A stretch of DNA of 35,287 bases from Candidatus Heimdallarchaeota archaeon (GCA_048881705.1 JBHLSH010000038.1:1-35287); one strand, 5' to 3'. Positions 846 to 21,500 are shown, counted from the stretch's first letter. The notes: generated by a model from the letters alone, not told the origin. A program made the numbers and translations.

Positions 846-2144
846 ATGACTACATTAAACGAAACTTTGGATCCAAACTTACGTTCCTTTATTTCTGTAC
901 CTGTAGATTCCCATTTTCCAATTCAGAATTTACCTTATGGTGTTTTTCAAGTTGGAGAACATCCGCCCCGTGTTGGAGTTGCTATTGGGGATCTGGTGCT
1001 TGATCTTGCAGAAATCGATCGTCTTGGGTATTTCCACAATACGGTTTTGGAAAATTCACATGCATTTGATCAACCTTTTCTAAATAAATTCATGTCTCTG
1101 GGAAGGGAGGCCTGGACCGAAGCACGAATTACCATTTCAAAAATCCTCAATGTAGAAAACCACGTACTTCGAGATGACTTCAGACTGAGGAAAAGAGTTC
1201 TTATACCTCAGGAAAAAGTCAATCTGCTGCTACCTGTTCAGATTGTTGACTACACTGATTTCTATTCATCAAAACACCATGCCTATAACGTTGGGGTTAT
1301 GTTCAGGGGAAAAGAAAATGCCTTACAACCCAATTGGCTGCATTTGCCTGTAGGTTATCACGGAAGGGCAAGTTCAGTTGTGATAAGTGGAACACCCCTT
1401 CATCGGCCACAAGGGCAACTGAAATCAGATGAAGAAGATAACCCTAAACTAGGGCCAAGTAAACTGCTAGATTACGAGTTAGAAATGGGATTCTTCATTG
1501 GTAAAGGAAATGAATTGGGAACCCCAATTCCTATTGACGAGGCCGCGGAGCATATATTCGGAATGGTGATTGTTAACGACTGGAGTGCACGAGATATTCA
1601 AAGATGGGAATATGTGCCATTGGGGCCCTTTTTGGGAAAAAGTTTCGGAACTTCTATCTCCCCATGGGTTGTAACTCTTGAGGCATTAACTCCATTTAGA
1701 GTGGCCAATGCGGAACAAAAGAATCCCGATCCATTGCCTTACCTTCGATCCCCAGAGAATTGGGGTTTGGATATCGAATTAGAGGTATTTATAAAGACGA
1801 AAAAACTGAAAAAGCGGTTTCGGATAGCTAAAACGAATTCAAAGTATCTTTACTGGAATATCCTACAACAAACAACGCATCATACAATTAATGGCTGTAA
1901 TCTTCAAACTGGAGATCTACTAGCCACCGGTACCATCAGTGGGCCCGATCCTGGATCTTACGGATCCCTTCTTGAAACTTCTTGGAAAGGAACGAAATCA
2001 TTAAATTTTCCGAATGGCGAATCCCGAAAGTTTCTTGAAGATGGAGACTGTGTGATTATGACTGGTTGGTGTCAGGGGCCGGGATATCGGGTTGGATTTG
2101 GGGAAGTAATCACCAAAATCTTACCAATAAACCCTTTAAAATAA
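846..2144 (+). CDS. fahA: Fumarylacetoacetase (two-domain FAH)
   Basis: N-terminal [81 protein letters not shown]. Confidence 0.95.
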
Positions 2145-2173
2145 ATAATAAATTGGAAAACACAATCGAGAAG

Positions 2174-2554
2174 ATGGATAAGATGGATTATTATATAATC
2201 TGGTGTGATTTGAAAAACAGCTCGAGGGATTTAGAATTCGTCCAAAGTGTCAAAACCTACCTAGGACATCTTCAGAGAAAGGAACTTATAGAGGAATTTA
2301 AGATTACCAGACGAAAACTGGGTTTTGGACCAAATGAATTGGGAGAATTCATGCTGACACTTGTTGTTAAGAATATGGCTCAATTAGAGAACACTTTCGC
2401 ACTGGTCACAACCAGAGAAGGCGTAGTCGAGGAGTTTCATCACGCGGTGTATTCTGCGGTTACAAACTTTAAAGCAGCACTTTATCGAGACTTTCCAGAC
2501 CCAACTAGGAGTTTAAATAAAAAACAGAATAGTTCGCTTGGCGAGAAAGATTAA
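2174..2554 (+). CDS. Small conserved hypothetical protein (DUF6614-like, from memory)
   Basis: Start moved to ATG 2174 (or 2183) because the longer ORF overlaps fahA. Motifs YIIWCDLK, RRKLGFGP, GEF, HHAVYS and ALYRDFPD. Confidence 0.7.
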   Translation: MDKMDYYIIWCDLKNSSRDLEFVQSVKTYLGHLQRKELIEEFKITRRKLGFGPNELGEFMLTLVVKNMAQLENTFALVTTREGVVEEFHHAVYSAVTNFKAALYRDFPDPTRSLNKKQNSSLGEKD

Positions 2555-2577
2555 CGGAGAAGTTTAGAAAATTAGAG

Positions 2578-3090
2578 GTGAAAAAATTGGATGCCTATAC
2601 TCAAGTTATTCATAGATTAGAAATACGAAACTTTGCGGAGGAACAGAACATTCCTAACACAATAGTACGGAAAATTGTCGAAGCTGGTCGCCTATCACCG
2701 TCAGCAATGAATCGTCAACCATGGAAATTTAAGGTCATTACAAACCCTGGAAAACTGGCGGAACTGGCTTCGATTCATCCCCATGCGCGTTTCGTTGGTT
2801 CCGCAGGTTTTGCAGTTGCTGTGTATACATCTGATCAGAAATTCGGTCCAATAGATGCTACGAGGGCAATCAGTCACATGCAAATAGCAGCCTGGGTATT
2901 ATCACCACGAATTGGCTCATGTTTTAATTTCGGTTGGAACGAACTTCAAGTCCAGGAAATAATAGGAGCTGTTAAAGGTTATCAACTGTTTACCATCATT
3001 CCCTTTGGATATCCGAGGATTTCGAAGGTTAAGGGGAAGAAAAACAGAAAATCATGGCATGAAGTCGTACTAGAAGATTGGGATACTTGA
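2578..3090 (+). CDS. Nitroreductase family flavoprotein
   Basis: R-x-x-I-R-N-F; AGRLSPSAMNRQPWKF; GSC; IPFGYP. GTG start. Confidence 0.9.
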   Translation: MKKLDAYTQVIHRLEIRNFAEEQNIPNTIVRKIVEAGRLSPSAMNRQPWKFKVITNPGKLAELASIHPHARFVGSAGFAVAVYTSDQKFGPIDATRAISHMQIAAWVLSPRIGSCFNFGWNELQVQEIIGAVKGYQLFTIIPFGYPRISKVKGKKNRKSWHEVVLEDWDT

Positions 3091-3104
3091 TGAGACGAAT
3101 GAAT

Positions 3105-3788
3105 CTAGGCGATAATTTCCGCAAACGCGCGAACTGGCATTGCTGCAACTTGTTTTCCTTTGATGGGAACACAGAAAAACCTGAACGGTTTATCATACAG
3201 GGAGCCCAAATTAGTTAGGTTTTCGACTATCAAAATATCTTTTTTCAAGAATTCAGTGTGTGCGGGCCTAAACAAATCGCGTGAATCGTCAATATTTATT
3301 GTATCGACACCTACTAAACCTACATTGGCGTTTGAAAGAAACTTGATTAGCTCTTCAGATATAAAGGGGTAGTCGTGGTACTTATCTGTCCCCCAATATT
3401 GATCCCACCCAAAATTTATCAAGATTGCCTTGTTAGTAAGGTTTAATCTTTCCGGAATAATTTCTAAACCAACAGCCTTTCCAGCTGATCCGTGTCTTGC
3501 GTTCAGGACAATTCCCTCCAAGATCACTTCTTCTATTCCAATTTCACTAATATCCCGTTTATCAGGATACCGATGATAGGGAGAGTCAAGGTAAGTACCT
3601 ACTGATGTCTGAAATGTTATTTCTGTTATCTCGAAGGATGCCTTATTCTTGTATCTCGGCCGAGATTGTTCATGAGTGAGAAAAGGACGTATTTGAGCTG
3701 TGAACGCTATCAGATCCCCGTTCTCTGATTTTAGGCGAAACCCTGGCATATTGTCTTCAAAAAGATGGCTAAGGTCAATGAATCGCAT
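3105..3788 (-). CDS. Cyclase family protein (kynurenine formamidase/KynB-like fold), variant metal motif
   Basis: MRFIDLSH start with GGTGA SD-like motif upstream; GTYLDSPYH; VGVDTINID; IVENLTNL; PVRAFA. Confidence 0.88.
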   Translation of the reverse strand: MRFIDLSHLFEDNMPGFRLKSENGDLIAFTAQIRPFLTHEQSRPRYKNKASFEITEITFQTSVGTYLDSPYHRYPDKRDISEIGIEEVILEGIVLNARHGSAGKAVGLEIIPERLNLTNKAILINFGWDQYWGTDKYHDYPFISEELIKFLSNANVGLVGVDTINIDDSRDLFRPAHTEFLKKDILIVENLTNLGSLYDKPFRFFCVPIKGKQVAAMPVRAFAEIIA

Positions 3789-3946
3789 CCGATCACCATG
3801 AGAGGGAATTAAAAGACCTGGTTTTACTGTATTGCTTCGTTGCCTGTAATATTCCATCCTATATTTATCGCCCTAGAGCTCGATTCCCCACCTCATTTCA
3901 AGGGTAATCCCAGAATATTGGATTTGCACTATGCTCGCATTCGGTA

Positions 3947-4186
3947 TCAGTAATCTACAATAGACCCGCATCTTGGGCAAAAACTAGAATCTTCTGGCAA
4001 TTCGGCACCGCAAAATTTACAGTATTGAGAGGAATTGGTTCTTTTCGCTGGTTTTCTTAGTCCGAAAGTAATAGGTAAAAGTAGAAAGATGAAGAGAAAC
4101 GGGAAATCAAAGGCGAGAAACAGTACCAAACTCAAAACCGAGATTAGCACCAGAATCAAGGCGGTGAAATTCCATCGTTTAGTCAT
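3947..4186 (-). CDS. Small membrane protein with C-terminal zinc ribbon
   Basis: Two hydrophobic segments, then CKFCG...CPRCG. Confidence 0.75.
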   Translation of the reverse strand: MTKRWNFTALILVLISVLSLVLFLAFDFPFLFIFLLLPITFGLRKPAKRTNSSQYCKFCGAELPEDSSFCPRCGSIVDY

Positions 4187-4348
4187 ATAGAGTCCACTAC
4201 ATTATGTTCCTGTTCAACCAATGAATTTCGCTTATCCAATATAAACTGATCAATTGTTGGCGCCTTGATTCAGCTCTAAACAGAGTTCATGTACGGTTTC
4301 AATTGATATTAAGGTATCATGATGCGGTAAAGCAAGTGCTTGGATTGG

Positions 4349-5050
4349 TCAGAGGTATCTCTTATAAAATTCAATAGTTTCATTCCATGCCAGCTGTGCG
4401 GATTTTCCATCTCCATATCTAGAGGAGAACGGATTTAAAAAGCCATGACCCACGTCATCGTAGACTTTAATTAAATGTGATCCGTATTGCGGTTTACTGG
4501 TAAGTAATTTTTCTTGGAATTTTTCTACATCACCAAACGGAAATGTGTGATCCTGTTTTCCGAAGATACCCAAAACAGGACATTCCATCTTATCAACAAG
4601 GTGAATTGGGGTATCGCTTTCATCCTGGCCCCTAGCTGGAAATCCGTAAAAGGAAACAACAGCATTCAGCTGCTCAGCATATCTGGCCGCAGCCAGGTAT
4701 GCATGCCGTCCGCCCATACAAAATCCCAGTACACCAATCCTTGATGGATCTACATTTTCCAGCTCATTTTTTACGAAATTCATCGTTGCTTCGAAGTCCT
4801 CAAATACTGAAAAATCAGTATAGTCGTTTTCCAAGATTCCTCCACGGTATACATCGAAACAAACTGCCGCGAAGCCTGCCTTAACCAGATCATCAACAAC
4901 CTTCCGCATAGGTTTATCGACACCCGGTCTATGCATGAATATTATGACTACTGGTGACCTAGGTTCATCGCTGGGAACGCCGACATACGCCGGTAATTTT
5001 GGATTAGATCTAATTTCTCGAAATGTATTCATTAATATCACTTTAATCAA
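4349..5050 (-). CDS. Dienelactone hydrolase family protein
   Basis: GFCMGG nucleophile elbow, GKQD acid, GHGF histidine. The start may be ATG 5032. Confidence 0.92.
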   Translation of the reverse strand: MIKVILMNTFREIRSNPKLPAYVGVPSDEPRSPVVIIFMHRPGVDKPMRKVVDDLVKAGFAAVCFDVYRGGILENDYTDFSVFEDFEATMNFVKNELENVDPSRIGVLGFCMGGRHAYLAAARYAEQLNAVVSFYGFPARGQDESDTPIHLVDKMECPVLGIFGKQDHTFPFGDVEKFQEKLLTSKPQYGSHLIKVYDDVGHGFLNPFSSRYGDGKSAQLAWNETIEFYKRYL

Positions 5051-5376
5051 GTTTCAATGGAGTAAAATGCTGTTCTAGAAGGTTTATAGCGCCTTTATCG
5101 GTTTTTTTTCTAATTATTTGGGTTGGGAAAATCGTATTATCAGGGTTTATTCAATTGAAACCCAGGCGTAAATTTGAGAATTTCCAAAATGCACAATATT
5201 CCGAAAAGGCAAGAAAATTGGTTTGGATCGAGGTGAAATCCCGGCACAAATTCTAAGGCGTCAATCTGGAGAGGCCTGACCACGCTCCGAAATACGAGGT
5301 TTCGGGGGAGGGTTTATTGGCTCTGTATAACCTGATGAAACGATGCATCAGAACTATTCTGTTGAGAAATGGGATC

Positions 5377-5384
5377 AAAAAAAA
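5377..5384 (-). terminator. Oligo(T)8 archaeal-type terminator candidate
   Basis: T8 on the minus strand about 17 nt after the stop of 5401..6300. Confidence 0.45.
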
Positions 5385-5400
5385 GGCATATAGCTCTTAT

Positions 5401-6300
5401 TTAAATCAAACAGGAACTAATGAAATCGATCACCGTGGATTCATACATAGAATCCGAATCAAGATTATAATGGTTTCCTCCTTTAACAACCCACAGTCTA
5501 CTATTGGGAAGTGCTTGATGCAAGGTTGAACTGTGTTTAAAAGGGAAAAAACTATCTTGAGTTCCATGGATCAATAAAACTGGTGACAGAATCAAGGGAG
5601 CAGCATCCAAAGGACTAAAATGATGTTTATGATATCTGAAATATCTGAAGCGTACAATCAACCATAATCCTGGAATAAAGAATGGAGTAAATATTCCTAA
5701 GCCTGGACGCATAATATATTTCATGCTCTGAGGGAGGGCGTAGGGAGGTGCTTCCGCTATAACACCTCTCACCGATGGTTCTTCAGCGGCCACCAATAGG
5801 GCGGCTCCCCCTCCAATTGAATGTCCTGCTAAAAACACGGGGCCTCCCCACCAGTGAATTACACTAGTTATATCCTCCGAAAAACGTCGAATATTCATTC
5901 CTGTAATCTCGCGGTCAGATTCACCGTGATCACGAACCGAGAAGAGAATGGTTGTAAAGCCATGTTTACCATAGATACGCGCGCGGGAAACCATTCGTCC
6001 CTGGTTTCGTCCCCACCCGTGGATAAGGATTATAGCAGGGTTGCCTTGTTTCCATTCATCAGTAAATTCGTCATCACTCGAGATTTCGATATTATGGGGA
6101 ACTACCATCAATCCTTCCAGGGTTTTATTCTTCACTGTGGGTATACGCAATCGATGTGTTTTCCCCCAGTCAGGAAGGTCTCGTATCGGGTTCCTAGGAA
6201 TTTTGGATGACAAGAGAATAATTAGGAGGCATGCAGCGAGATAAATGGTAGTCCCAATCAGGGAGAGAAGAATAAGCTGCATAATGGTGCCAAAAGACAT
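5401..6300 (-). CDS. Membrane-anchored alpha/beta hydrolase
   Basis: N-terminal TM; IHGWG; GHSIGG; LIHGTQD; GGNH. Confidence 0.92.
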   Translation of the reverse strand: MSFGTIMQLILLSLIGTTIYLAACLLIILLSSKIPRNPIRDLPDWGKTHRLRIPTVKNKTLEGLMVVPHNIEISSDDEFTDEWKQGNPAIILIHGWGRNQGRMVSRARIYGKHGFTTILFSVRDHGESDREITGMNIRRFSEDITSVIHWWGGPVFLAGHSIGGGAALLVAAEEPSVRGVIAEAPPYALPQSMKYIMRPGLGIFTPFFIPGLWLIVRFRYFRYHKHHFSPLDAAPLILSPVLLIHGTQDSFFPFKHSSTLHQALPNSRLWVVKGGNHYNLDSDSMYESTVIDFISSCLI

Positions 6301-8560: not shown

Positions 8561-8932
8561 TTAACGATTACACTCCTAATCTTGTAATTTTCTTGGATTT
8601 TTTTCCTCTTCTATTATTATAGGATTCCAGAGGGGAATATCAAATCATTACTTGAATAGTTATAGTTTATCTGAGCAGAATTTTCCAGTTTGAATTATAA
8701 TTCTTATTTGTCAATAAAACACCATGGATTGAGTTAGGGAATAGGTCAGCTGGGATTTCTTCTAATCTTACAGTATCAGCCATTTAATTTTGTCCTTGTT
8801 TTAAGTGAGAAATTTTGCCCTGGTCATAGGCACTTTTAAGTGAAGGGCCTTTTCCGCCCATTAGGTGGGAGATTTTGGGCAGATAGTGATGTAACAGTAA
8901 CAATAATAGTCGTTTTTATATGGTGGCTAATA

Positions 8933-10177
8933 GTGTTCAACGTAGAAACCATAAGAGAAAGTTTCCCTGCTCTACATGTTCTTAAAGATGGAAAACCAAT
9001 CATTTATGCCGATTCCGCCTGTATGACTCTCAAACCTCAAGTTGTAATAGAAGCGTTAACAGAGTACTATTGTGAATATTCTGCGTGTGCTGGACGGTCA
9101 CCCCATTATTTTGCTCGTCAAACAACCACAAAGTTCGAGGATGCCCGAGACATTGTAGCTAGATTTATTAACGCGCGAGATTCTGGAGAGATCGTATGGG
9201 TAAAGAATACCACAGAAGCTTTGAACCTAGGAAGCGGTGTATTACAATTTGATGGTTCAGGGGAAACCATAATAGTTACTTCGGATTCCCATAATTCCAA
9301 TCTCGTTAAGTGGATGTATTACGCAGATCTAGGAAGAATAAATCTTGAAGTTCTTAATGTAGGGGTCTCTGGCCGTTTTAGCGATGAAGAATTAATAGAA
9401 AAACTCGAGAAAAGTAAAAAGGGGAGGACTTTGGTCACTTTAGCCCACGCTTCGAATGTAACTGGTGCTATACTTGATATCAAAAACATTGCAAAGATAG
9501 TACACGAATATGGAGGTATTGTCCAAGTGGATGGAGCACAGAGCTTCCCCCACCAAACCATTGACGTTCGAAATTTGGATATTGATTTGATGGGAGTTTC
9601 AATGCATAAAGCATGTGGACCGACTGGAACAGGGTTTTTGTTCGGGAAACAGGAAATATTAGAGTCTTTAAATGCCTTGATACTCGGAGGAGAAACAGTC
9701 AGGGATGTACGTCTTCCTGATGGAATCGATCTGTTACCACCACCAGCACGATTTGAGGCGGGCCTTCAAAACTATGCTGGCATTATTGGTGGAGGTGCGG
9801 CAATTGAATTCCTGAAGTCCATTGGGATGAGGGAAATTCACAAACATAATCTGAAATTATCAACAATCCTCCTGAAAGGTCTTCAGGATCTTTTTGGAGA
9901 GAAAATTGCGGTTTTGGGCCCCTCCAATCCCATAGAAAGGGTAGCCCTTGCGGCTATAGACCTCAAAGAAATTAATGCTCATGAAGTTGCCATTTTGATG
10001 GATGAGATGTTCAATATATTTTTACGATCTGGTTTTCATTGCACTCACGGTCTTCATCATCAACTCGGTCTTAATCAAGGAACGCTTCGCCCTTCTTGGT
10101 ATCTATACAATACTAAAAACGAAGTTAATCTCTTTTTAGATGCGTTGGCAGAGATTCTGGAAACCCTCGGGATATGA
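8933..10177 (+). CDS. sufS: Cysteine desulfurase/selenocysteine lyase, group II (SufS-like)
   Basis: Likely GTG start at 8933 (MFNVETIRESFPAL); YADSA; HASNVTG; DGAQS; SMHKACGPTGTG (PLP Lys); FEAG; RSGFHC catalytic Cys. Confidence 0.9.
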   Translation: MFNVETIRESFPALHVLKDGKPIIYADSACMTLKPQVVIEALTEYYCEYSACAGRSPHYFARQTTTKFEDARDIVARFINARDSGEIVWVKNTTEALNLGSGVLQFDGSGETIIVTSDSHNSNLVKWMYYADLGRINLEVLNVGVSGRFSDEELIEKLEKSKKGRTLVTLAHASNVTGAILDIKNIAKIVHEYGGIVQVDGAQSFPHQTIDVRNLDIDLMGVSMHKACGPTGTGFLFGKQEILESLNALILGGETVRDVRLPDGIDLLPPPARFEAGLQNYAGIIGGGAAIEFLKSIGMREIHKHNLKLSTILLKGLQDLFGEKIAVLGPSNPIERVALAAIDLKEINAHEVAILMDEMFNIFLRSGFHCTHGLHHQLGLNQGTLRPSWYLYNTKNEVNLFLDALAEILETLGI

Positions 10178-10479
10178 TTTTTCTATCATACAGCTGGCTG
10201 TTGAATCTCATGACCCTGAAACCGTTGGAAAAAACAAAGACATTGATCCTTTTGTTGCTAAAAGACATGGTTGAAGCCACAACAGCCGAAATCGTAAATG
10301 AGGCCTCCATTATATCTGCAGATTGCAAAGATCGAGTTCCAGCAGCCATCGCGGGACTTAATCGCGCTGGAATGCTCCACCGATCAATTTCTCGTGAAAA
10401 GAAAGCCATCGTTTGGAGTCTGTCTGGTAGTGTAGATTTATCCTTGTTGAAGGATCAAAATATCAACAGTTTTGAATGA
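10174..10479 (+). CDS. Small winged helix-turn-helix protein
   Basis: Overlaps the sufS stop (ATGA); alternative start at 10210. Pattern IL..LL...ATTAEIV...helix...L...GML...W fits a wHTH. Confidence 0.6.
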   Translation: MIFLSYSWLLNLMTLKPLEKTKTLILLLLKDMVEATTAEIVNEASIISADCKDRVPAAIAGLNRAGMLHRSISREKKAIVWSLSGSVDLSLLKDQNINSFE

Positions 10480-10726
10480 CCGGCGTTATACCAAGAACTT
10501 TTCGAAATCTGGATTTGAGAATTCCCTTCACACAGCGGCAGCCAAGAGGGTGCGTTAGAATCGCTCCTGAAGGGCATTGTAGGCTGCATGCACCACATTC
10601 AATGCATTTTTCCTCGTCAATTAGTGTTGCGGGTTCATTTGGTGGAATAACAATGATTTGATGAGGGCACACGCCCACACAAAACCCACATGAATTGCAT
10701 TTCTCGCCAAAGATCGTCGCTGCCAT
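10463..10726 (-). CDS. HgcB-like 2x[4Fe-4S] ferredoxin
   Basis: CNSCGFCVGVCP and CIECGACSLQCP; the latter matches the HgcB signature C(M/I)ECGAC. Extra Cys63, Cys65 and terminal Cys87. Lies 24 nt after the HgcA-like gene. Confidence 0.88.
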   Translation of the reverse strand: MAATIFGEKCNSCGFCVGVCPHQIIVIPPNEPATLIDEEKCIECGACSLQCPSGAILTHPLGCRCVKGILKSRFRKVLGITPVIQNC

Positions 10727-10750
10727 CGTGGTGTATTAAATGGCATCATT

Positions 10751-12412
10751 TTAAAATAGTTGATGGATTGGAGGAAAAAAAAGACCGAGAACGAAAACAA
10801 TAATGATGATTATTATTGTGGGAATCATAAGTATCGCCAAATCGCTTTCAACATTCAAATGATTTGAATGGGGAGTGCTCCCTGCGAAGTCCAAAACTAC
10901 AAAAAAGGAAATCAAAAACCCGAGAGAACACCAGAATATAATTGTGGGGAGATTCTTATCGGATAACCAAAGGAAAATTAGGAGAGAGTTTATAGAGGAA
11001 AATATTACTCCCTTATAGAAGAACGACTTAACGGAACGTAGAATCGGGTATATAATCGGGAAGACAAACGACGGGAGAATAGTAAAAGCCGCTAACTGAA
11101 TCGCAACATCCCACCAGAAATGCAAAGGATCTCCTCCAAATGACCAGAAAAAGCCGAGACCTAGGAGTAAAGGCAAAAAGACGGTTACAAGAATAAAAAA
11201 AGTGTGCTGTATTGCCATTAAGATTCGGAAACGCATATTGAATCTGACGATGGCCTGATCTTTTGCTTTCCTGTAATCATTTCGTTCATATTCTGGAAAG
11301 TCATCAATGTAAACAGGCCCAAATGCCGGACGCCATCCATAACGGCGTATCGCATGCTGGTCAACACCTGTAGCGGATAGTTGGGGTAATATCAGACGTT
11401 TATGGTTTAAAAATGTTGAATCTGTAAATAATCGGAGAGCATCTATAACTTGATGGTGTGTAAAATGCTTTCCCCCAGCAGCACACCATACATTTATTCC
11501 CGCTGAATCTATTATCAAAATCCAGCAATTGATGCAGGATTTAATTAATGACCTATTAACCCTCCACACGGTCCAGTAATAGTTCCCCGTTACTAATAAG
11601 GGTGAGTCCTTGGTTGGAGTCCCGAGAGAGTATATGCCTGGCGTAACCTTATTTCTTGTGTAGATTCCGTTAATGATGCAATACAGCGTACGGATCAATC
11701 CAAATTTTCCCAATGTTTTTGAAAGGGGCTCCAGCTTGACAGGGCCATGCTCCTCCATAGTAATGTCCAAAGTACAACCAAAGAGCTGGATTGACCCCAT
11801 GGATAATAGGTGAGTAGGGGCGAAGTAGTTTTTCAGTAGCTTGCACAGGTTCTTTATTGGAAAAGTCTGGTAGGTTTTTCGGAAAACCATTATCTGCGAA
11901 AAGATCCAACGCTTAAACCAATAGAAGGGTCTTTTAAAACCAAAGTGAGGTAATGTTTCAGCCGCAATGTACAGGGTACCACTCGGTATCAAAAGTTCCT
12001 TCACTTGTTTTAAAAACAGTTGTTGTCGAAGAGGGGTCAATTCCGATAAAACAAAGGTTGAAACAACATATTCAAAGGGACCCATTGAAGCTAGCTTTTT
12101 AAAAATCGAATAATTGATAAAATCCCCTTGTAGAAAAAATATTTTTCCCTGCAATCCTTCTTCCTGAGATTTTTCGGTAGCGTGATCTATCATTTCTTCC
12201 GAAATGTCAACTGCCGTTACATCCAATCCCTTCTGAGCCAGCATACGGGATAATTGCCCTGTACCGCAGCCAATTTCGAGAACTTTCCCTCCTTTCCCTA
12301 TAGACTCCAATATTCGCCTATAAATTTCTTTAGATTCGGGAAACAGGCGGCGAAATTCCTCATCAAATGTATTAGGATCTTTCTCAAGGATTTTCATATA
12401 AAGTAGGCTCAT
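10751..12412 (-). CDS. Fusion: class I SAM methyltransferase + HgcA-like corrinoid-binding domain + about 5 TM helices
   Basis: aa 1-215: LYMKILE, VLEIGCGTG, AVDISEEM, VVSTFVLSEL. aa ~230-395: VTPGIYSLGTPTKDSPLLVTGNY, ILIIDSAGINVWCAAGGKHF, RLILPQL, FGPV, VRF. Then 5 hydrophobic segments with DFAGSTP. Confidence 0.88.
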   Translation of the reverse strand: MSLLYMKILEKDPNTFDEEFRRLFPESKEIYRRILESIGKGGKVLEIGCGTGQLSRMLAQKGLDVTAVDISEEMIDHATEKSQEEGLQGKIFFLQGDFINYSIFKKLASMGPFEYVVSTFVLSELTPLRQQLFLKQVKELLIPSGTLYIAAETLPHFGFKRPFYWFKRWIFSQIMVFRKTYQTFPIKNLCKLLKNYFAPTHLLSMGSIQLFGCTLDITMEEHGPVKLEPLSKTLGKFGLIRTLYCIINGIYTRNKVTPGIYSLGTPTKDSPLLVTGNYYWTVWRVNRSLIKSCINCWILIIDSAGINVWCAAGGKHFTHHQVIDALRLFTDSTFLNHKRLILPQLSATGVDQHAIRRYGWRPAFGPVYIDDFPEYERNDYRKAKDQAIVRFNMRFRILMAIQHTFFILVTVFLPLLLGLGFFWSFGGDPLHFWWDVAIQLAAFTILPSFVFPIIYPILRSVKSFFYKGVIFSSINSLLIFLWLSDKNLPTIIFWCSLGFLISFFVVLDFAGSTPHSNHLNVESDLAILMIPTIIIIIIVFVLGLFFPPIHQLF

Positions 12413-13555
12413 CTATGATGACCATCCTAGTAAATGTCTGTTCCCGATATGTACATTTTTGAGATGCCCCTTTGCCGCATTATAGCATTTTTCAGCTTGC
12501 TTAGGTGAAGTAACAGGCAAATCGCTTAGGAACGAGGAAGGGTGAAAGGCTAGAAGGCTATAGGGAATCGTTTCATCTAATTCAGCTAAAAAACCCGCTA
12601 TGAGGTCAATTTCCGTTTCGTCAATATAACCTGGAATTAGTAGCGTCGTTGCCGTAAGTACTGGGATTTCTTTTCTTTGATAATAGAATTTGTGGAAGCA
12701 CATTTCAAAGTTCTTGAAAGACTGTTCATTAGAGACCCCGCTAAGTATCTGTGATAGAATCGGACTATAGTACTTTAAATCAAATTTGGCGTTTCCTCCC
12801 GTATCCAAAGCCAAAGCCACAGCATTCCTCACCAATTTTGGGTGTCCGGCGCCATTCCATTCCCAACAGACACGAAGGATACGATCAGAATATTCCTTAA
12901 CCGCTTGTTTGCTCGCACGGAGAGTCCAGGGTAACTGTGGCTCAGGGGATCCCCCAAACCAACATATACAAGAAACTAGCGGATTTTTTGCCTTTGAAAT
13001 GAATTTTCCTATCGTATATCGCTCCCCAATGTCAATGTTTCTATGTTGAGAGTTTTGACATCCATAACAAAAGAAATTACAGCCATATAGGAAGCAAGCA
13101 AGATTATAATGGTTAAACTCTGGCCCAGGAGAGCAGGCAAATATGGGATATCCCTTACCTGTCCCACCTGGGCAAAAATAGGTTGAGCAACAGTTAGTTG
13201 GAAGGGGATCTAGATAAGTATGCAAAATCGCTTCTTTATTACCCGAAATCGATCCAATTCTTCCTCCACGATTTTCCCAAAGTCCACAATATCCTGATTC
13301 CCCTGGCGCTATATAACAGGTATTCGAACAGATTTTACACTGAACTCCCTCTGATTCATGTGGGAAATTTGTACGTAATCCCCAATTCGAACGAGAATGC
13401 GAATGTACGTTCTCGATGTACTGTATAGCCTTTGCAGGATTATTACGGATGCATTCAGAGCAAATACCTATGTACTGAGAAAATATGGGAGGCTTTTTTT
13501 GACAGATATGACATCTTCGTGTTTTCTTCGATTGAGAGCCACGAATGAAGGGCAT
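12413..13555 (-). CDS. Radical SAM protein (AmmeMemoRadiSam/PFL-activase-like) with Cys-rich N-terminus
   Basis: GCNFFCYGCQN (CxxxCxxC); GGSPEP; FDLK; N-terminal CHIC..CSEC and CKIC...C...GYCG; C-terminal AFHP and NVHIGN. Confidence 0.92.
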   Translation of the reverse strand: MPFIRGSQSKKTRRCHICQKKPPIFSQYIGICSECIRNNPAKAIQYIENVHSHSRSNWGLRTNFPHESEGVQCKICSNTCYIAPGESGYCGLWENRGGRIGSISGNKEAILHTYLDPLPTNCCSTYFCPGGTGKGYPIFACSPGPEFNHYNLACFLYGCNFFCYGCQNSQHRNIDIGERYTIGKFISKAKNPLVSCICWFGGSPEPQLPWTLRASKQAVKEYSDRILRVCWEWNGAGHPKLVRNAVALALDTGGNAKFDLKYYSPILSQILSGVSNEQSFKNFEMCFHKFYYQRKEIPVLTATTLLIPGYIDETEIDLIAGFLAELDETIPYSLLAFHPSSFLSDLPVTSPKQAEKCYNAAKGHLKNVHIGNRHLLGWSS

Positions 13556-13577
13556 TGCCTAATTTATTATTTTGTAG

Positions 13578-13585
13578 ATTAAAAA
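13578..13585 (-). promoter_or_regulatory. TATA-like box for the radical SAM operon
   Basis: TTTTTAAT on the minus strand, centred about 26 nt before ATG 13555 (leaderless geometry). Confidence 0.4.
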
Positions 13586-13645
13586 CCTTGATACCCAAAG
13601 CCCATCGAAATCATCGCTCCATTTAGCAAATATTAAATCGCCCCC

Positions 13646-13652
13646 AAAAAAA
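13646..13652 (-). terminator. Oligo(T)7 terminator candidate after the GTPase gene
   Basis: T7 on the minus strand 4 nt after the stop at 13657. Confidence 0.45.
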
Positions 13653-13656
13653 TCAT

Positions 13657-14202
13657 TTACCTCTCAGTATTAACCATTAGGCGAGCCAGGTCTGAAAAAG
13701 CGGCTTCCACATTCTCTCCTGTTAGTGCGGAAGTATTATAATGGTGAGATATGGCTTCTAACTCTCGAAAGGTATCAACGTGTTCAGCGGAAACGGTTCG
13801 TAATTCAAATAGATCAGATTTATTTCCTATCAAAACAAATGGAATTCTGCCAGTCACAGCCTCTATATCCTTAATCCATATGTGTAAAGATTCCAAAGTT
13901 TCTTGAATTGTTATATCATATACAAGTAATGCGCCACGTGCGTTTGAAAAGAACCTATTCCGAATAGATCGAAATAGGGTCTGTCCAGCGATATCCCAAA
14001 TTTGTAATGAGATATCCTGTTGATCCTGAACCAATCTTTTTGAGGTAATTTCGACTCCAATGGTTGCCTTATAATCGGATTTGAACTGACCATGGACAAA
14101 GCGATTGATCAGAGTTGTCTTTCCAACAGCCCCTTCGCCAGCCAGAATGATTTTGAACTTGTATTGGCCTTCTTCTTCAACATCGCTTACTTCAATGCTC
14201 AT
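13657..14202 (-). CDS. Rab-like small GTPase
   Basis: G1 GEGAVGKT, G2 YKATIG, G3 WDIAGQ, G4 NKSD, G5 TSAL. RabF-like IGVEI, LQIW, FRSIR and LVYDIT. No C-terminal prenylation Cys. Confidence 0.95.
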   Translation of the reverse strand: MSIEVSDVEEEGQYKFKIILAGEGAVGKTTLINRFVHGQFKSDYKATIGVEITSKRLVQDQQDISLQIWDIAGQTLFRSIRNRFFSNARGALLVYDITIQETLESLHIWIKDIEAVTGRIPFVLIGNKSDLFELRTVSAEHVDTFRELEAISHHYNTSALTGENVEAAFSDLARLMVNTER

Positions 14203-15394: not shown

Positions 15395-16711
15395 ATGCTC
15401 AAGAGTGGGAAGATCAAAATTAGGCCTCGAAAGTTGAAAAAATTCCCCTGGAGCGCTTTGATCATTTTATTCTTGCTTCCTGCAGTCATCGGAAATCTGC
15501 CCGTCACTCACGAAATCCCTTTTTCTGATCGAACTCCTAAAATTGAAGGGGAAGATTACATGAAAGTGAACATGACGGAAACAAGTTCAAAATCGATGGA
15601 GACCACGGACCTTATCAAATCTTCTATTCTGGAATCGGGATCGGAAACCATAGAATCTTATTTGACTTCGTTTAATGATGAATCAGACACGGGAGGATAT
15701 TGGTTAGTCATCGAAAATGACACCAATGATCTCGATCCCCGTCTTTCAACTGCCTACGTCGAAGTGGCTCAAAAATTCGAAATCATAGAAGAAACAGCAA
15801 ATATAACTCAAATTCAAGTTTATATAAAATACATAGATCTGGATTCAGGAGATGACATTCCACACGGGGTAATCTCCATTTTTAATGATAATAACGGGGC
15901 TCCTGGAATCCCACTAGGAACAGCATCACTAGAGGAGGGCTTTGCTTTCCTCAATTTGGGTGTTCCTATTGGCCCAGCATGGATTACTTATACACTTCAA
16001 ATTCCGATCGAGGTAACCATGGGAGAGTATTGGATAGTTCTTAGTGATACAGGAGATCAAGCAGCAGGCTATTGGGAGTGGTACACCCAAGCTGATACGA
16101 ATAACGAGGATGCAGGTGACTGGGCTGCACGTTCATCCCATGAAGGAGACTGGTATGTCAATCCTATTCCCGTTGGTGATCTTCTTTCTTCCGTTAAAAT
16201 TCTTGAAACTCAAACATCTCCTCCAGAAGAAAACCCGAATGAGGATCCGCAAGGTAACAGTACTCTTTACTACTTTGTATTCAAGAGCCCAGGAATTGGC
16301 GCCTTTGAATACAACTTAACCTTTGTAATAAAAAACTCAAGCGACCTAGCACCATTCCATCATAGGCATCAGAACAAGGGTAAATCTCACTCGAAATCTA
16401 ATGGTTCGCCCAAGGAGAATTATTTTTTCGATGAGGAATCATCCTCTATTGTTTTCATTGTTGAAATAGGAAAAGAATTATTCGAAACCAATGGGGCCTC
16501 TTCACGATCTCATCGACTAAACAGGAATGTACTTGGAGTTGTTTTAAGTAGAATTCATTCTTTTCTCTCTACGGTCTCTGAAACATTTTCATACAGATGT
16601 TTAGGCATTATATTCAAAATTAAGACCTCAAATGCATCGGGAAGATCCAATTTCCACGATGTGGTAATTACTTTTTCTGTGGGTCGTATTCTTTCAAGCA
16701 CTAAGATATAA
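15395..16711 (+). CDS. Secreted/surface protein with a beta-rich domain shared with the next gene
   Basis: Basic plus hydrophobic N-terminal signal; aa ~106-270 clearly align with aa ~168-335 of the next ORF; no C-terminal TM anchor. Confidence 0.75.
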   Translation: MLKSGKIKIRPRKLKKFPWSALIILFLLPAVIGNLPVTHEIPFSDRTPKIEGEDYMKVNMTETSSKSMETTDLIKSSILESGSETIESYLTSFNDESDTGGYWLVIENDTNDLDPRLSTAYVEVAQKFEIIEETANITQIQVYIKYIDLDSGDDIPHGVISIFNDNNGAPGIPLGTASLEEGFAFLNLGVPIGPAWITYTLQIPIEVTMGEYWIVLSDTGDQAAGYWEWYTQADTNNEDAGDWAARSSHEGDWYVNPIPVGDLLSSVKILETQTSPPEENPNEDPQGNSTLYYFVFKSPGIGAFEYNLTFVIKNSSDLAPFHHRHQNKGKSHSKSNGSPKENYFFDEESSSIVFIVEIGKELFETNGASSRSHRLNRNVLGVVLSRIHSFLSTVSETFSYRCLGIIFKIKTSNASGRSNFHDVVITFSVGRILSSTKI

Positions 16712-16883
16712 GCCATGGCTTACGAGTAGTGGTTCCAAAACGAGTGATAAGTCAAAATGCTTATTTATCAAAAGAGAGCGATATTGGCAAGGAACCGCAA
16801 AAAAGGCCAGATGGGGGTTTTATTTTGTTTTTATTACGTGTTGAGCGGAAGGATGAATGGTGGTTTTTTTTAGATGGTCGAAT

Positions 16884-19800
16884 ATGGGTCAAAAATCCAT
16901 CACGTTCCTTTTCATTTTGCTTGTCACATTTTCTCTTTTCAATCCACTGAAATTCCAATCTGATAACAAGGTTTTCGTTGAGGATAATTTTAACACGAGA
17001 CCCTTACGTAATCTCGAAGAAAGATTTACTAAGCAGATAGGAGAAGTGCGAGGCGCTCCAAAATCATCTAAGATTTTCGATAACCTTAATACCGAGCCTA
17101 CTGATTCAGTAGAGGCTAATAGAGGGCTGCTTTCACGAAGTATAGGGAGGCAATCGGGATTTGGAAATGGTTCCTACTCGGTGTTAGATTCGTACACGAA
17201 GGTCAATATAAGCGGGCTAAACACCAAGAACTCAATAAAGGATGGCAATCCAAGTCAACATAACACAACCCTTTTGATAGATCCCCTGGCCGATTTTTCG
17301 CAAGATACAGTTTTCTTTCAGATCCAGGAAGTTGTAGCTCAAGAAGATTGGCGTACGATAGAGAATAACGTCTCAAATGCGGATTCGCTTAGTTCTACCT
17401 CCTTCGTTGAGGCTGGTCAGAAGTTTGATATCAAAGAAGATTATGCCAACGTTACTGAGGTCAGTATTTTTCTTAAGTACATTGATACTGTCGGTCTTGA
17501 TGGAAAAAATCCCCATGGTAACGTATCTATCCATGATGATAATTCTGGAGAGCCAGGTAAACAATTGGGTACAACAACGCTAGAAGAGGGATTTGGCTCA
17601 CTTGATATAGGGCCAGTAATTCCTGCGGCATGGATTAGCTACAGGTTCCCTGTTCCGATTAACTTAACCAGGGGATCGTATTGGTTGGTACTTAATGATA
17701 CGGGAATTCCAGTAGAAGGGTCTTGGGAATGGTACGCACACGAGGATACATCGTTTGGGGACGCAGGTGATATTGCCCTAAAAACAAGTCATGCAGATAC
17801 ATGGTCTCTCAACCCTTTTCCGTATGATAGTCATGATATTATTTCAGCGATTCGCATCCTTCCCACCGATGGAAATTGGAATAATTTAACTTATACAAGT
17901 CCATCAGACATAAAAATGAACTATACTACAACAGATGGAGGATATACACTCAGTTCATTCTCTTTTAAAGGCAATAACACCTTTTTCCATGAATTCAACA
18001 CGACAACATCAGTTTCGTTTATGCTTTTGAATACAATAAATTACACATATTCTGGGAATCCCATTAGTGGAATCTCCACGTACCGAGCTGAAAATGATTC
18101 ATTGGTGTTATGGAATATAACATTCTCCACGGCTCAAATCAGTACTTCTGATGCGATCAAAAACCACACCATAACAATCAAAGGTATCCCTGCAGATTGG
18201 AATGGTTCAAGAATATACTGGAATAATTCTGGCATTCCTGAATATCCTAATCTAATCAATGATTTCAACGTGACCTGGGATGGAGATCCAGCCCATAAGT
18301 ACACCTACGGCAATACGACAATGGTTGTTAATGCGAGCAGTTTATCTGATAACGTCACCTGGCATGTTTGGTTCGAGGCTCCTAATTATCTTCTCAATTT
18401 CACTCTAGGCCGTGGTACTACTCCGTTTACCATCCCTTATGAAGCTAATATTACTGATCTCTTGAACTTGACCTTCTATACTAAATTTACGGGCAATCTA
18501 ACCTATTGGATCGATTTTCCTTATGGATCAACCCTTACACATGTGGACATTAATGGTATAGACACAGAATTCTGGGAGGAATGGGATATCAACAAAACAG
18601 TAGATCAAACCATTGATGTAAACGGAACCTATCGTCTCCAGGCATTTTGGAATAACGACGATCTAACCAAGGTCGGTACATTTATTCGACTCTTAGACCT
18701 TTTTGTGAATACATCATTATCGCCGCTGGACGAAACTGAAATTTTAATAGGTCAGAATTTGAATTTGACTGTTAATTATAAATCCAACCACAACAATACC
18801 GACATCAAAGGAGCTTTAATTTGGGCTAATGCAAGCTGGCCCACAGGTGCCAGGCAAAACACGACTATGACCCAGCTCGGGGATGGATCCTATAATGCAT
18901 CTTTTATCACCACAGGACAACCTGCTGGTAATACGGGAACAGTAACAGTAACCACTCAAGTAGGGTGGTTCGTAAACTGGACCCGCACTTTTTTTGTAAA
19001 ATTCGTTGAAAATTCTTCTCTCTTCGTCGATAAGGCAAATCTTGTATTGGAATGGCGAGAAAATATTACACTTCGTATAGATTATCTTAATTCAACAGAC
19101 GGGGTCATTTTCGATGGAATTGTGAAAATTGACGGAAATAACGTTTTATATGATACTGGGGCCTTCTTTTATAGGTTAAATACAACCGATTTTGGGGGAA
19201 TTGTATCCTATATGGATATCCCGATTGTTGCAACTCATTCCCATTACCTATCTCGTCAAATTAACATATCCTTGACCATTACCTCAGGTGAGACTAGTAT
19301 TGAAGCGAACTATAAAGGTCAACCACATCTCAATAATACGATGATACCAGAAGATATCATTTTCGCCATGAGCGCGCAGGATACCGTCATGATTAATTTT
19401 CGTTATCATTCGACCTTTCCTATTGACCTAACCCTAAATACCACTCCTGCAGTTGATTATTCTCCAATAGCAGTTATTTCTGTTAAATCGGAAATTAACC
19501 GAACATGGACGATTAATATCAATCCCGATAAAATAGGGCTTTACTCAATTAACGCCTCCTTTTCGCTAGCGAATTATAACTATAGCCTATTTAACTTTAA
19601 GATTAACGTTGTCAAGGCACCAACTGAAGTGATTAGTAGTATCACTTTTCCTAGAACAGTCTACTTTACTGAGAACGTGGTTTTTTATTTAAATTTTCAG
19701 AGTTCAACTTACAAGGAACTAATTCCACTTGTAACGCCTTTGATTAATGATCAGTCCAAGATAACGTTCCTCGACAATGATACCGAAAAATACTGGTTCA

Positions 19801-21500
19801 GATTCAATACCAGTCACCTGTCAATGGGTTTGCACTCCGTTCAGATTTCTTTTTCAAGCGCGGACTATGAATCCAGCGAGATTGAGGTAGTATTCCAAGT
19901 TGTGGAGATGCCCACCTTACGTTTGCCTTCCGATCTGATCCATTTACCTGATAATGAGATGGTTCTTATAGAAGACTTGTTTGCCATATCTATAGACAAT
20001 TTCTTGACGTATCAAGGTGAAAACATCAGTCATCTAGATGAATTCAATCTATGGTTGAATGGGACTCCTGTTCCAGAGAAAGATTTTCAGGAGGCACACT
20101 TGGCTCAAGCACCTTTTTCGTTAGTTTTTTCAACCGTTGGCTGGCAATATGGGTCCTATAATCTTACTCTTCAGCTTTTTACCTCGGGGTTCCAGCCCCA
20201 GTACTTTACCTCCAATATTACCTTACAGGGCCGACCCATTGAGATGGATGTTGTGATCTTACCAGGTACCACCATCTCACAGGGAGAAAATCTCACATTT
20301 ATTATCGAACTAGCTTATAAATTGACTACGCAAGGAGGCGGATCAGGTGTGCAGCTTTATTCGCTTGAAGGAATAGATGTATCGTTCTACATCATGATTG
20401 AAAACGAAAACGGATCCCAGCTTGTTTTCGAATATTATACTCAGACTAATAGTCTAGGTGAAGCTTCCTATGTGATTCCGGGTTCACGGACATTGGCCGC
20501 CTTGCGTTTCTCAAATATCACCATTCAGACTGGAATAGGGTTATCTAGTTTGCCATATTCCTATATTATGCCTATTGAAAAGCTCGAGTCGTATAATTTT
20601 CTTCCGCCGCAAGTTGACATTATGGGAGTCATTGTTTTTGTTTTAATCATCGTCGTCGTAGTGCTAATATGCGCATTTGCGGCTGGAGGGGCTGCCCGTA
20701 CTGTTCATCGTAGACGTGAAAAGCGGGCTCAAGTGGTTCAGAGTCATGAGGTTGCGATTGAACGGAGTTTTGAAGATATTAAATCAATCAAGGCGATCGT
20801 CGGACGTGTCGAGTCAGGTTTGCCATTTTATTACGAAAATACGACCGCGGATATCCGTACAGATCCACACGCCTTATCGGGTATGTCAGCGGCGATTTCC
20901 TCATTTATGCAGGAAATTTCTGGGGGATTGAGTTCCCGTTTTGAAGACGGGGAGATGGCGGAACAGATCGAGATTATGAGTCGCCACGGACTGCACCTGC
21001 TCATGTGGAACGGGAGGTTTATCACAATGATGGTTATTTCCGATATTGAACTTCCCGATTATTTCAGAGGTAAGTTGGCAGGATTAGGCAACGAACTGGA
21101 ATTTATGTTTAAAGAAGAATTAAAGGAATTCTATAATACGGAACAGATTCCATCATCAACCGTGAGGAAAATCGTTCACAAGTACATTCCCTTACATTAC
21201 TTTTCTGCATTCATTCTCAATGAAGGAATTATTACTCTTAAAGGCATTAAATTTTCCAAACAGGATAAGAAGATGATTTCCTTGGTAAAGGAGATACTCT
21301 TTGAGAAAAACGGGATGCAATTCTTGTTTTCTGAACAGATCATTTCTCATCTTTCAAGGTATTTCAAGAGAAGTAAAGCTATCAGTTTTTTAGACAAGGC
21401 TATTGAGCAGAATCTATTGATCGAATTTGATCCTGAAGATATATTACGTTCTAAAGAAGGGCAATCTGAAGAGCCCATCCCACTAGGCCAGAATATCTAG
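16884..21500 (+). CDS. Large single-pass surface glycoprotein with cytoplasmic longin/roadblock-like domain
   Basis: Signal peptide from ATG 16884; about 1200 aa beta-rich ectodomain with dozens of N-x-S/T sequons; TM at ~20619-20696 followed by RRREKR; then ESGLPFY...LSGMSAAISSFMQEI...FRGKL...ELEFMF. Confidence 0.85.
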   Translation: MGQKSITFLFILLVTFSLFNPLKFQSDNKVFVEDNFNTRPLRNLEERFTKQIGEVRGAPKSSKIFDNLNTEPTDSVEANRGLLSRSIGRQSGFGNGSYSVLDSYTKVNISGLNTKNSIKDGNPSQHNTTLLIDPLADFSQDTVFFQIQEVVAQEDWRTIENNVSNADSLSSTSFVEAGQKFDIKEDYANVTEVSIFLKYIDTVGLDGKNPHGNVSIHDDNSGEPGKQLGTTTLEEGFGSLDIGPVIPAAWISYRFPVPINLTRGSYWLVLNDTGIPVEGSWEWYAHEDTSFGDAGDIALKTSHADTWSLNPFPYDSHDIISAIRILPTDGNWNNLTYTSPSDIKMNYTTTDGGYTLSSFSFKGNNTFFHEFNTTTSVSFMLLNTINYTYSGNPISGISTYRAENDSLVLWNITFSTAQISTSDAIKNHTITIKGIPADWNGSRIYWNNSGIPEYPNLINDFNVTWDGDPAHKYTYGNTTMVVNASSLSDNVTWHVWFEAPNYLLNFTLGRGTTPFTIPYEANITDLLNLTFYTKFTGNLTYWIDFPYGSTLTHVDINGIDTEFWEEWDINKTVDQTIDVNGTYRLQAFWNNDDLTKVGTFIRLLDLFVNTSLSPLDETEILIGQNLNLTVNYKSNHNNTDIKGALIWANASWPTGARQNTTMTQLGDGSYNASFITTGQPAGNTGTVTVTTQVGWFVNWTRTFFVKFVENSSLFVDKANLVLEWRENITLRIDYLNSTDGVIFDGIVKIDGNNVLYDTGAFFYRLNTTDFGGIVSYMDIPIVATHSHYLSRQINISLTITSGETSIEANYKGQPHLNNTMIPEDIIFAMSAQDTVMINFRYHSTFPIDLTLNTTPAVDYSPIAVISVKSEINRTWTININPDKIGLYSINASFSLANYNYSLFNFKINVVKAPTEVISSITFPRTVYFTENVVFYLNFQSSTYKELIPLVTPLINDQSKITFLDNDTEKYWFRFNTSHLSMGLHSVQISFSSADYESSEIEVVFQVVEMPTLRLPSDLIHLPDNEMVLIEDLFAISIDNFLTYQGENISHLDEFNLWLNGTPVPEKDFQEAHLAQAPFSLVFSTVGWQYGSYNLTLQLFTSGFQPQYFTSNITLQGRPIEMDVVILPGTTISQGENLTFIIELAYKLTTQGGGSGVQLYSLEGIDVSFYIMIENENGSQLVFEYYTQTNSLGEASYVIPGSRTLAALRFSNITIQTGIGLSSLPYSYIMPIEKLESYNFLPPQVDIMGVIVFVLIIVVVVLICAFAAGGAARTVHRRREKRAQVVQSHEVAIERSFEDIKSIKAIVGRVESGLPFYYENTTADIRTDPHALSGMSAAISSFMQEISGGLSSRFEDGEMAEQIEIMSRHGLHLLMWNGRFITMMVISDIELPDYFRGKLAGLGNELEFMFKEELKEFYNTEQIPSSTVRKIVHKYIPLHYFSAFILNEGIITLKGIKFSKQDKKMISLVKEILFEKNGMQFLFSEQIISHLSRYFKRSKAISFLDKAIEQNLLIEFDPEDILRSKEGQSEEPIPLGQNI

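Follow-up and report, generated by a model that had tools for sequence, protein, structure and literature searches.

A SAM methyltransferase fused to an HgcA-like corrinoid protein and its partner ferredoxin: a proposed methyl-relay module in Asgard archaea

We analyzed a 35,287-nucleotide (nt) stretch of DNA from a Candidatus Heimdallarchaeota archaeon (GCA_048881705.1 JBHLSH010000038.1:1-35287; genome code G000), called the window below, and focused on a minus-strand gene for a 553-aa protein and on the ferredoxin gene that follows it. The 553-aa protein is a CpaM-like class I S-adenosylmethionine (SAM) methyltransferase domain fused to an HgcA-like corrinoid and transmembrane (TM) domain that has a Cys in its cap helix. 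We propose, with a probability of roughly 0.6 and largely by analogy, that the fusion works with the ferredoxin as a two-gene methyl-relay module, which belongs to an unnamed Asgard clade of the HgcA superfamily, that this module is related to the CpaM + HgcAB-like system and serves a thiophilic acceptor, and that the radical SAM gene abutting it is a bystander. What the HgcA superfamily natively does has long been asked, since mercury methylation has no known benefit to the cell. The features of the locus are as follows.

12413..13555, minus strand: radical SAM gene, 380 aa (CNFFCYGC motif, N-terminal Cys-rich ribbon)
10751..12412, minus strand: fusion gene, 553 aa (SAM methyltransferase, HgcA-like domain and five TM helices)
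10463..10726, minus strand: ferredoxin gene, 87 aa (HgcB-like, 2x[4Fe-4S])
11483..11485, minus strand: codon of Cys310 in the cap helix, predicted from homology to HgcA Cys93 to be the lower axial thiolate ligand of the corrinoid cobalt
13556..13656, minus strand: 101-nt intergenic region 5' of the radical SAM gene; includes a stretch that is A/T-rich and TATA-like (sequence reading)

An earlier note on this DNA had described three tightly linked minus-strand genes with gaps of 0 and 24 nt, and the open reading frames (ORFs) bear this out. The TAG stop codon of the radical SAM gene (12415-12413) touches the ATG of the fusion gene (12412), and the TAA stop codon of the latter (10753-10751) is followed by 24 nt and the ATG of the ferredoxin gene (10726). 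The A/T-rich TTTTTAATC, located ~25-35 nt 5' of the radical SAM ATG, is TATA-like but indistinguishable from chance in a genome of 40% G+C. Met6 of the fusion, which is invariant (80 of 80 homologues), lies five codons 3' of the annotated start MSLLYM (12398-12412, minus strand); should translation really begin at Met6, 15 nt would separate the fusion from the radical SAM gene instead of 0.

The domain structure of the fusion is supported by profile matches, conserved residues and a structural model. The methyltransferase domain (M) covers approximately residues 1-245, and the corrinoid-binding domain (~250-390) and the TM helices (393-545) together make up the corrinoid/TM part (A). Residues 2-194 match CpaM NF043040 with 144.2 bits (model positions 1-192 of 216), the best specific match of this half, which also matches Pfam class I methyltransferase models (e.g. 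Methyltransf_25, E 5e-17) and gives only weak ArsM-type matches in the profile search. Residues 254-542 match HgcAB_like NF043039 (205.5 bits, residues 254-516), HgcA NF040863 (162.5 bits) and PF03599 CdhD (40.7 bits; cutoff 24.8), and the fusion protein also matches NF003195 with 61 bits. The cap helix, NVWCAAGGKH, contains Cys310, and there is no ferredoxin domain in the same chain. In an alignment of 80 fusion homologues, C310, N307, W309, the SAM motif I glycines G48/G50/G52 and the CpaM-type residues M6/L9/E10 are invariant and D69 is nearly so, and the consensus retains the motifs PG.Y..G.P...SP.LVT.NY, GINVWCAAG, LILPQL, GPV and F.GST. The CpaM score together with the invariant M6/L9/E10 agrees with the resemblance to CpaM that the earlier note had pointed out.

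The AlphaFold2 model of the fusion, with the 80 homologues as input, is a confident single body (pLDDT 92, pTM 0.89) with a short cap helix (308-313) and five long helices (393-423, 429-458, 464-482, 488-512 and 518-545). Its top fold match, which lies in the A part, is 9a0b_A, the HgcAB model of Cooper et al. 2020 (E 1.9e-11, 328 alignment columns), and the nearest folds of the M domain are small-molecule C-/O-methyltransferases such as CysG of K. cystarginea, DhpI and NovO. A PDB sequence search with the fusion returned only class I methyltransferases and gamma subunits of CFeSP, a corrinoid iron-sulfur protein (2h9a, E 2.5e-5, residues 255-366), with no HgcA entry among the matches. The motifs, the profile matches, the five helices of the model and the CIECGAC motif of the separate ferredoxin corroborate the earlier description of a SAM methyltransferase fused to an HgcA-like protein with a free HgcB-like ferredoxin.

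We then located the fusion among its relatives. Gene arrangements are abbreviated as M for the methyltransferase, A for the corrinoid/TM protein and B for the ferredoxin, with a slash marking a gene boundary. The NCBIfam cutoffs are 275 bits for HgcA NF040863, 285 for HgcAB_like NF043039 and 180 for CpaM NF043040, and the models were calibrated on clear members. "K-type" denotes HgcA proteins whose cap helix has the Lys described below, and "ars-linked MA" denotes a paralogous clade of MA fusions found in ars-type operons. The scores, in bits, were:

K-type HgcA (P0184, P0190): HgcA 429-434, HgcAB_like 189-200
AB fusions (P0172, P0178, L037): HgcA 153-172, HgcAB_like 376-419
Free CpaM beside an AB fusion (L037): CpaM 248, adjoining HgcAB_like protein 378
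MAB chain (P0085): HgcA 143.5, HgcAB_like 360, CpaM 264
Ars-linked MA (P0055): HgcA 165, HgcAB_like 175, CpaM 145
Split form (L033): HgcA 164, HgcAB_like 198, CpaM 134
Window fusion: HgcA 162.5, HgcAB_like 205.5, CpaM 144.2

The searches with the HgcA, HgcAB-like and CpaM models that the earlier note had suggested found matches in both halves of the protein, but all of them fall below the curated cutoffs. The window fusion, the ars-linked MA clade and the split forms lie under all three cutoffs and are unnamed sister lineages. The cap helix points the same way. The published high-stringency rule for the HgcA cap, N(V/I)WC(A/S/G)(A/G)GK (PMC10087281), is not satisfied by NVWCAAGGKH, which keeps the N, W and C and has G at the K position. 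The sixty proteins that match the rule (mostly NVWCAAGKG[TS]) are all plain HgcA, and none of 131 methyltransferase fusions matches it.

Two quick maximum-likelihood trees (98 rows x 174 columns and 106 rows x 304 columns), rooted on the C-terminal domains of Asgard CdhE, separate CdhE from all HgcA-type proteins (support 97 and 99), unite the K-type HgcA in one clade (94 and 100), and place the window fusion inside its own, almost purely MA clade (96 and 99), outside both CdhE and true HgcA. The corrinoid domain, which the earlier note had likened to HgcA, therefore does not branch inside CdhD/AcsD. With its PF03599-type domain, invariant cap Cys, five predicted TM helices, separation from CdhE and fold match to 9a0b, the window protein belongs to the HgcA superfamily, but it is not a true HgcA either. 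In the second tree, true HgcA is sister to the ars-linked MA clade and nested among methyltransferase-associated lineages (support 91), which would make the methyltransferase partner ancestral. A tree with all non-K forms in a single clade is, however, not rejected by an approximately unbiased (AU) test (p-AU 0.51, log-likelihood difference +0.57), so we make no claim on the ancestral state.

These results bear on whether the fusion is a genuine mercury methylase, an equivalent of HgcAB with a built-in SAM domain that would produce methylmercury in Asgard archaea. The HgcA-like fold with its invariant cap Cys, the HgcB-like Cys tail of the partner ferredoxin described below, and the use of SAM as the methyl donor of HgcAB (PMC11588087) are all in keeping with this idea. 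Against it, the fusion scores 162.5 bits on an HgcA model with a cutoff of 275, compared with 429-434 for K-type proteins, its cap helix fails the HgcA rule along with every one of the 131 methyltransferase fusions, and it falls outside the true-HgcA clade supported at 100. In addition, cultured organisms with related fused HgcAB make no methylmercury, as relayed in the part of PMC10087281 that cites Podar 2015 and Gilmour 2018. We consider a mercury methylase quite unlikely, and on its sequence features the window fusion is probably not one.

The fusion is genuine, and it occurs widely in Asgard archaea and Chloroflexi. Among 5.8 billion proteins searched, at least 120 full-length fusions (520-590 aa) turned up, annotated only as 'methyltransferase domain-containing protein'. 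Their sources are Hodarchaeota, Heimdall-, Hermod-, Odin- and Lokiarchaeota/Promethearchaeota as well as Chloroflexi, and ~30 fusion clusters are present in a representative library at 50% identity. Within the window's own phylum, a relative at E<=1e-20 was found in 138 of 301 sampled genomes, in 45 of the 90 high-quality ones, and in 16 of 20 genomes of the genus group. An assembly artefact was considered and rejected, since the same fused ORF occurs in at least 120 independent proteins or assemblies, including a 77%-identical orthologue in two other assemblies. The three parts occur in four arrangements:

M/A/B, three genes: L029, L031-L034
MA/B: window and most Asgard copies
M/AB, the catalogued CpaM + HgcAB-like pair: L037
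MAB, a single chain: e.g. P0085

That all four states occur is Rosetta-stone evidence for joint action of M, A and B. In split M/A/B loci of another family, at L029:1571-1576 (in the minus-strand frame) and at L031:1683-1688, the TGA stop codon of M is directly followed by the in-frame ATG of A, so that the split and fused forms are one codon apart. Selenocysteine-containing forms were also considered for matches with one in-frame TGA, and rejected; these are M/A gene boundaries with a stop codon and an in-frame ATG. Bona fide CpaM/AB pairs and CpaM-AB single chains are present in the phylum of the window, and L037 confirms the statement of the earlier note that CpaM adjoins HgcAB-like fusions. 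The claim of a different architecture holds in that MA/B differs from M/AB, but the arrangement is widespread and represents one among the four fusion states of a module that is already catalogued; NCBIfam covers both the component families and their partnership, and MA/B is a variant fusion point. We found no paper in the literature that names CpaM or describes a methyltransferase::HgcA fusion, and the 'fused HgcAB' clade has been discussed, Asgard members included (PMC10083202).

The ferredoxin is the regular partner of the fusion. It lies directly 3' of the fusion gene in all eight loci fetched by identity and, across the full set of 49 loci, in at least 43. The 87-aa protein matches Fer4 families and has two CxxCxxCxxxCP motifs, CIECGAC among them, and its best specific match is HgcB NF040864 (58 bits, below the cutoff of 99). 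It carries extra cysteines, C63 and C65 (G-C-R-C, after cluster 2) and a single C-terminal C87, where close relatives end in CC. The partner ferredoxins of Asgard MA/B loci keep G-C-(G/R)-C after cluster 2 and a C-terminal C or CC, and this Cys tail is missing from the ferredoxins of split M/A/B loci and of the Chloroflexi locus and from 17 of 18 ferredoxin ends of AB and MAB chains. C63, C65 and C87 resemble C73 and C94/C95 of HgcB, which are essential (PMC11588087). In a complex prediction, the A part and the ferredoxin scored 0.60 (best control 0.00), with runs agreeing in at least 91% of contacts and a partner pLDDT of at least 74. Of 80 solved complexes, 58 attain the mark set for such scores, as do 2 of 110 mismatched pairs, but scores of 0.60 or less occur in only 7 of the 80 and in both passing mismatches. 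The predicted complex would be weak support and is given no weight here, as the AB and MAB fusions already argue for contact.

From homology and architecture, and by analogy with the HgcAB cycle (PMC11588087), a mechanism can be outlined for the proposed two-gene module. The ferredoxin would dock on the corrinoid domain and supply low-potential electrons to make or restore Co(I). The N-terminal CpaM-like domain would bind SAM and methylate Co(I) to CH3-Co(III), which would be held in a 'Cys-on' state by Cys310 of the cap helix, so that loading from SAM to the corrinoid may take place within one molecule, as we infer. The methyl group would then pass to a thiophilic acceptor at the membrane face, possibly presented by C63, C65 and C87 of the ferredoxin, as proposed for the terminal cysteines of HgcB. 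The putative ligand role of Cys310 follows from its homology to HgcA Cys93, which is essential (PMC11588087). For true HgcAB, the passage from SAM to Co to the acceptor with Cys ligation, and with HgcB as the reductant, has been demonstrated (PMC11588087). Two points of the earlier note, SAM as the methyl donor of HgcAB (PMC11588087) and hgcAB homologues in Asgard archaea (PMC10083202), are both found in the literature.

We also considered that the protein might mainly be a Co(I) reductive dehalogenase or halomethane-handling enzyme, a role lately proposed for HgcAB; a preprint reports dechlorination of CCl4 by heterologous HgcAB (bioRxiv 10.64898/2026.04.26.720869). That observation comes from a single preprint about true HgcAB, and the conserved fused SAM methyltransferase domain with its intact motif I would have no role in reductive dehalogenation, making this reading very improbable.

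The radical SAM gene, counted as an operon member in the earlier note, does not hold that place when other genomes are compared. It adjoins the fusion gene only in the window genome and at the 77%-identical orthologue L014 in genome G102, which shares extended synteny. Seven of the eight fetched fusion loci have no radical SAM gene. Five genomes of the same genus (G139, G211, G184, G107 and G119) carry the radical SAM and fusion orthologues on different contigs, in G062, G136 and G175 the radical SAM gene is present and the fusion was not found with the window query, and in two further genomes of the genus the fusion is present and there is no radical SAM match. Orthologues of the radical SAM protein are 47-64% identical across Asgard, Bathyarchaeia, other Thermoproteota and Brockarchaeota, a far stronger conservation than that of the fusion. 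The protein itself matches PF04055 (31 bits), has only weak activase-type NCBIfam matches, falls into generic Atlas clusters, and has no PDB relative by sequence search. Because adjacency is confined to two genomes, the genes are separated or the fusion was not found elsewhere in the genus, and the gene is broadly conserved among archaea, we judge it a bystander that abuts the module in one lineage; a place in the module was rejected on the adjacency survey of the genus, the fetched loci and the orthologue conservation.

The same comparison weighs on the possibility that the radical SAM protein, the methyltransferase::corrinoid fusion and the ferredoxin constitute a class-B-like (cobalamin-dependent) radical SAM methylase in split form, with an unactivated carbon in a peptide or metabolite as its target. 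The zero-nt junction of the first two genes in the window and in G102/L014 would suit such an enzyme, but the obligate association that it implies is contradicted by the five genomes with separate contigs, the three in which only the radical SAM gene was found, the seven loci that lack it, and its conservation across archaeal phyla. We regard a split enzyme as most unlikely.

To look for clues to the methyl acceptor, neighbouring genes were clustered across the 49 fusion loci. The paralogous MA clade, ~30-36% identical to the window fusion, sits in ars-type operons in which a divergent ArsR/SmtB gene is followed by DUF166, ACR3, MA, ferredoxin, two small proteins (~91 and ~115 aa) and YdjM. 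ArsR with the CVC metal-site motif (RCVCELE) is present in 21 loci of two families, and ACR3 in 15 loci of three genera (TIGR00832, 281.9 bits against a cutoff of 282.8). Examples are L057:4153-8692 (G109), L058, L063 and 12 more, and the ferredoxin of these loci is Cys-tailed. This arrangement suggests B12-dependent arsenic chemistry, and it fits the published link of true hgcAB to an arsenic-responsive ArsR-like regulator (bioRxiv 10.1101/2022.10.17.512643). For the clade of the window fusion a metal(loid) acceptor is a lead and not a result; if we had to name an acceptor class, we would guess at soft metal(loid)s, As(III) for instance, and not at Hg(II) in particular. A bolder version, to which we give a modest chance at most, is that Cys-tailed Asgard MA/B proteins are B12-dependent, ArsM-independent methylases of As(III), and perhaps of Sb(III) or Hg(II), with the CpaM-like domain as a dedicated SAM-to-cobalt loader.

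The module might instead carry out a biosynthetic methylation of an organic or membrane-associated acceptor, such as a thiol, a lipid, a quinone-like compound or a natural-product intermediate. The nearest folds of the M domain, CysG, DhpI and NovO, are small-molecule enzymes, and metal-resistance genes are not found near the window clade. Biosynthetic neighbours are not conserved either, as the neighbourhoods of the window clade vary among loci, and thiophilic metal(loid)s are what the Cys-tailed ferredoxin and the paralogues in ars operons suggest. An organic acceptor seems rather unlikely to us.

Several observations weigh against the proposed two-gene module with a thiophilic acceptor. The mechanism of the clade, like that of CpaM and HgcAB-like proteins, is a prediction from sequences and models. 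True HgcAB, once purified, can use SAM although it has no methyltransferase domain (PMC11588087), and for this reason the M domain might have a task different from loading the corrinoid. The zero-nt junction could still mean that the radical SAM gene and the fusion gene are co-expressed in the window genome. No ars genes lie within 4.5 kb in the 11 distinct loci of the window fusion's clade, and the tree does not join this clade to the ars-linked one as its sister, which makes the transfer of a metalloid role to it weak. The ACR3 gene of the window genome is on another contig; no canonical ars operon with ArsM was found beside it, only a generic methyltransferase gene 1.5 kb away. Finally, neither CobS nor CbiB was found in the window genome, which is 91% complete, and this points to cobamide salvage. 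In favour of the module, the nine B12-binding-domain (PF02310) proteins of this 3.96-Mb genome imply that the organism uses cobamides. It has a single PF03599 gene, and neither CdhD/E nor true HgcA was found in it; CdhE is present in 34 of 61 sampled genomes of the phylum. The organism is probably a cobamide salvager without a Wood-Ljungdahl CFeSP.

The surroundings of the module show further features. Its near neighbours in the window encode a SufS-like desulfurase, a TauE/SafE exporter, an MBL-fold protein and a Ras GTPase. The SufS-family cysteine desulfurase gene (TIGR01979, 352 bits, below the cutoff of 475) and, overlapping it by 4 nt, an ORF of 101 aa with no family match occupy 8840-10479 on the plus strand; the ORF runs toward the ferredoxin gene and shares 17 nt with its 3' end, and the same arrangement is present in the 77% relative L014. 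Genes for Ras-family small GTPases, which are Asgard signature proteins, are found beside or near the module in the window (13657-14202, minus strand), at L010:6943-7890 and at L011:9366-10649, probably by coincidence in genomes rich in GTPases. At L012:7592-9266 and L017:2964-4796, in Heimdall-type genomes, a protein of 373-379 aa with a faint LanC-like match and a glyoxalase-fold protein stand beside the fusion in two arrangements. Elsewhere in the window, a catabolic-type cluster at 846-6300 (fumarylacetoacetase, nitroreductase, 'putative cyclase', dienelactone hydrolase and alpha/beta hydrolase) suggests a capacity for aromatic or amino-acid breakdown. There are also two very large plus-strand ORFs (16857-21500, 1547 aa; 30853-34629, 1258 aa) and a 438-aa ORF at 15395-16711 with no Pfam match.

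The covalent joining of a methyltransferase to a corrinoid protein provides independent genomic support for the 2024 finding that SAM, and not methyl-tetrahydrofolate (methyl-THF), feeds HgcAB chemistry, and the ars-operon setting of the paralogous clade gives a concrete candidate substrate. If the metal(loid) methylase reading were true, the Cys-tailed MA/B proteins would reveal the purpose for which the HgcA superfamily evolved, and mercury methylation by HgcAB would be a later specialisation or a side reaction. Since the cap helix fails the hgcA motif filter, metagenomic surveys could miss the fusion, or miscount it as a mercury methylator under looser cutoffs.

Among known systems, the closest is the pair of CpaM (NF043040) and HgcAB-like (NF043039) proteins, the 'fused HgcAB' of Podar 2015 and Lin 2023. 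It has the same three modules in the same order as the window, shares the non-lysine cap type NVWCAA.GG., and provides the top-scoring models for the M and A parts. The window differs from it in being MA/B and not M/AB, in scoring below both cutoffs (205.5 against 285 and 144.2 against 180 bits), in forming a separate clade (99), and in having a free ferredoxin with an HgcB-like Cys tail, which AB forms lack. HgcA and HgcB (Parks 2013; Zheng 2024, PMC11588087) share with the window the invariant cap Cys, the five TM helices, a separate downstream Cys-extended ferredoxin and a predicted SAM source, whereas the window protein has an N-terminal methyltransferase domain, has the cap Lys replaced (GGK, not GKG), and lies under the HgcA cutoff and outside the HgcA clade. 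The CFeSP large subunit, CdhE/AcsC (PF03599; PDB 2h9a), has a corrinoid-binding domain homologous to that of the window, but it has neither Cys ligation from the cap nor a TM domain, and it receives its methyl group from methyl-tetrahydromethanopterin (methyl-H4MPT) or methyl-THF via a methyltransferase (MeTr). ArsM shares the class I SAM methyltransferase fold, and the ars-linked MA sits where ArsM might be expected; unlike the CpaM-like, corrinoid-fused methyltransferase of the window, however, ArsM needs no cobalamin, as it transfers the methyl group directly to As(III) on a cysteine triad.

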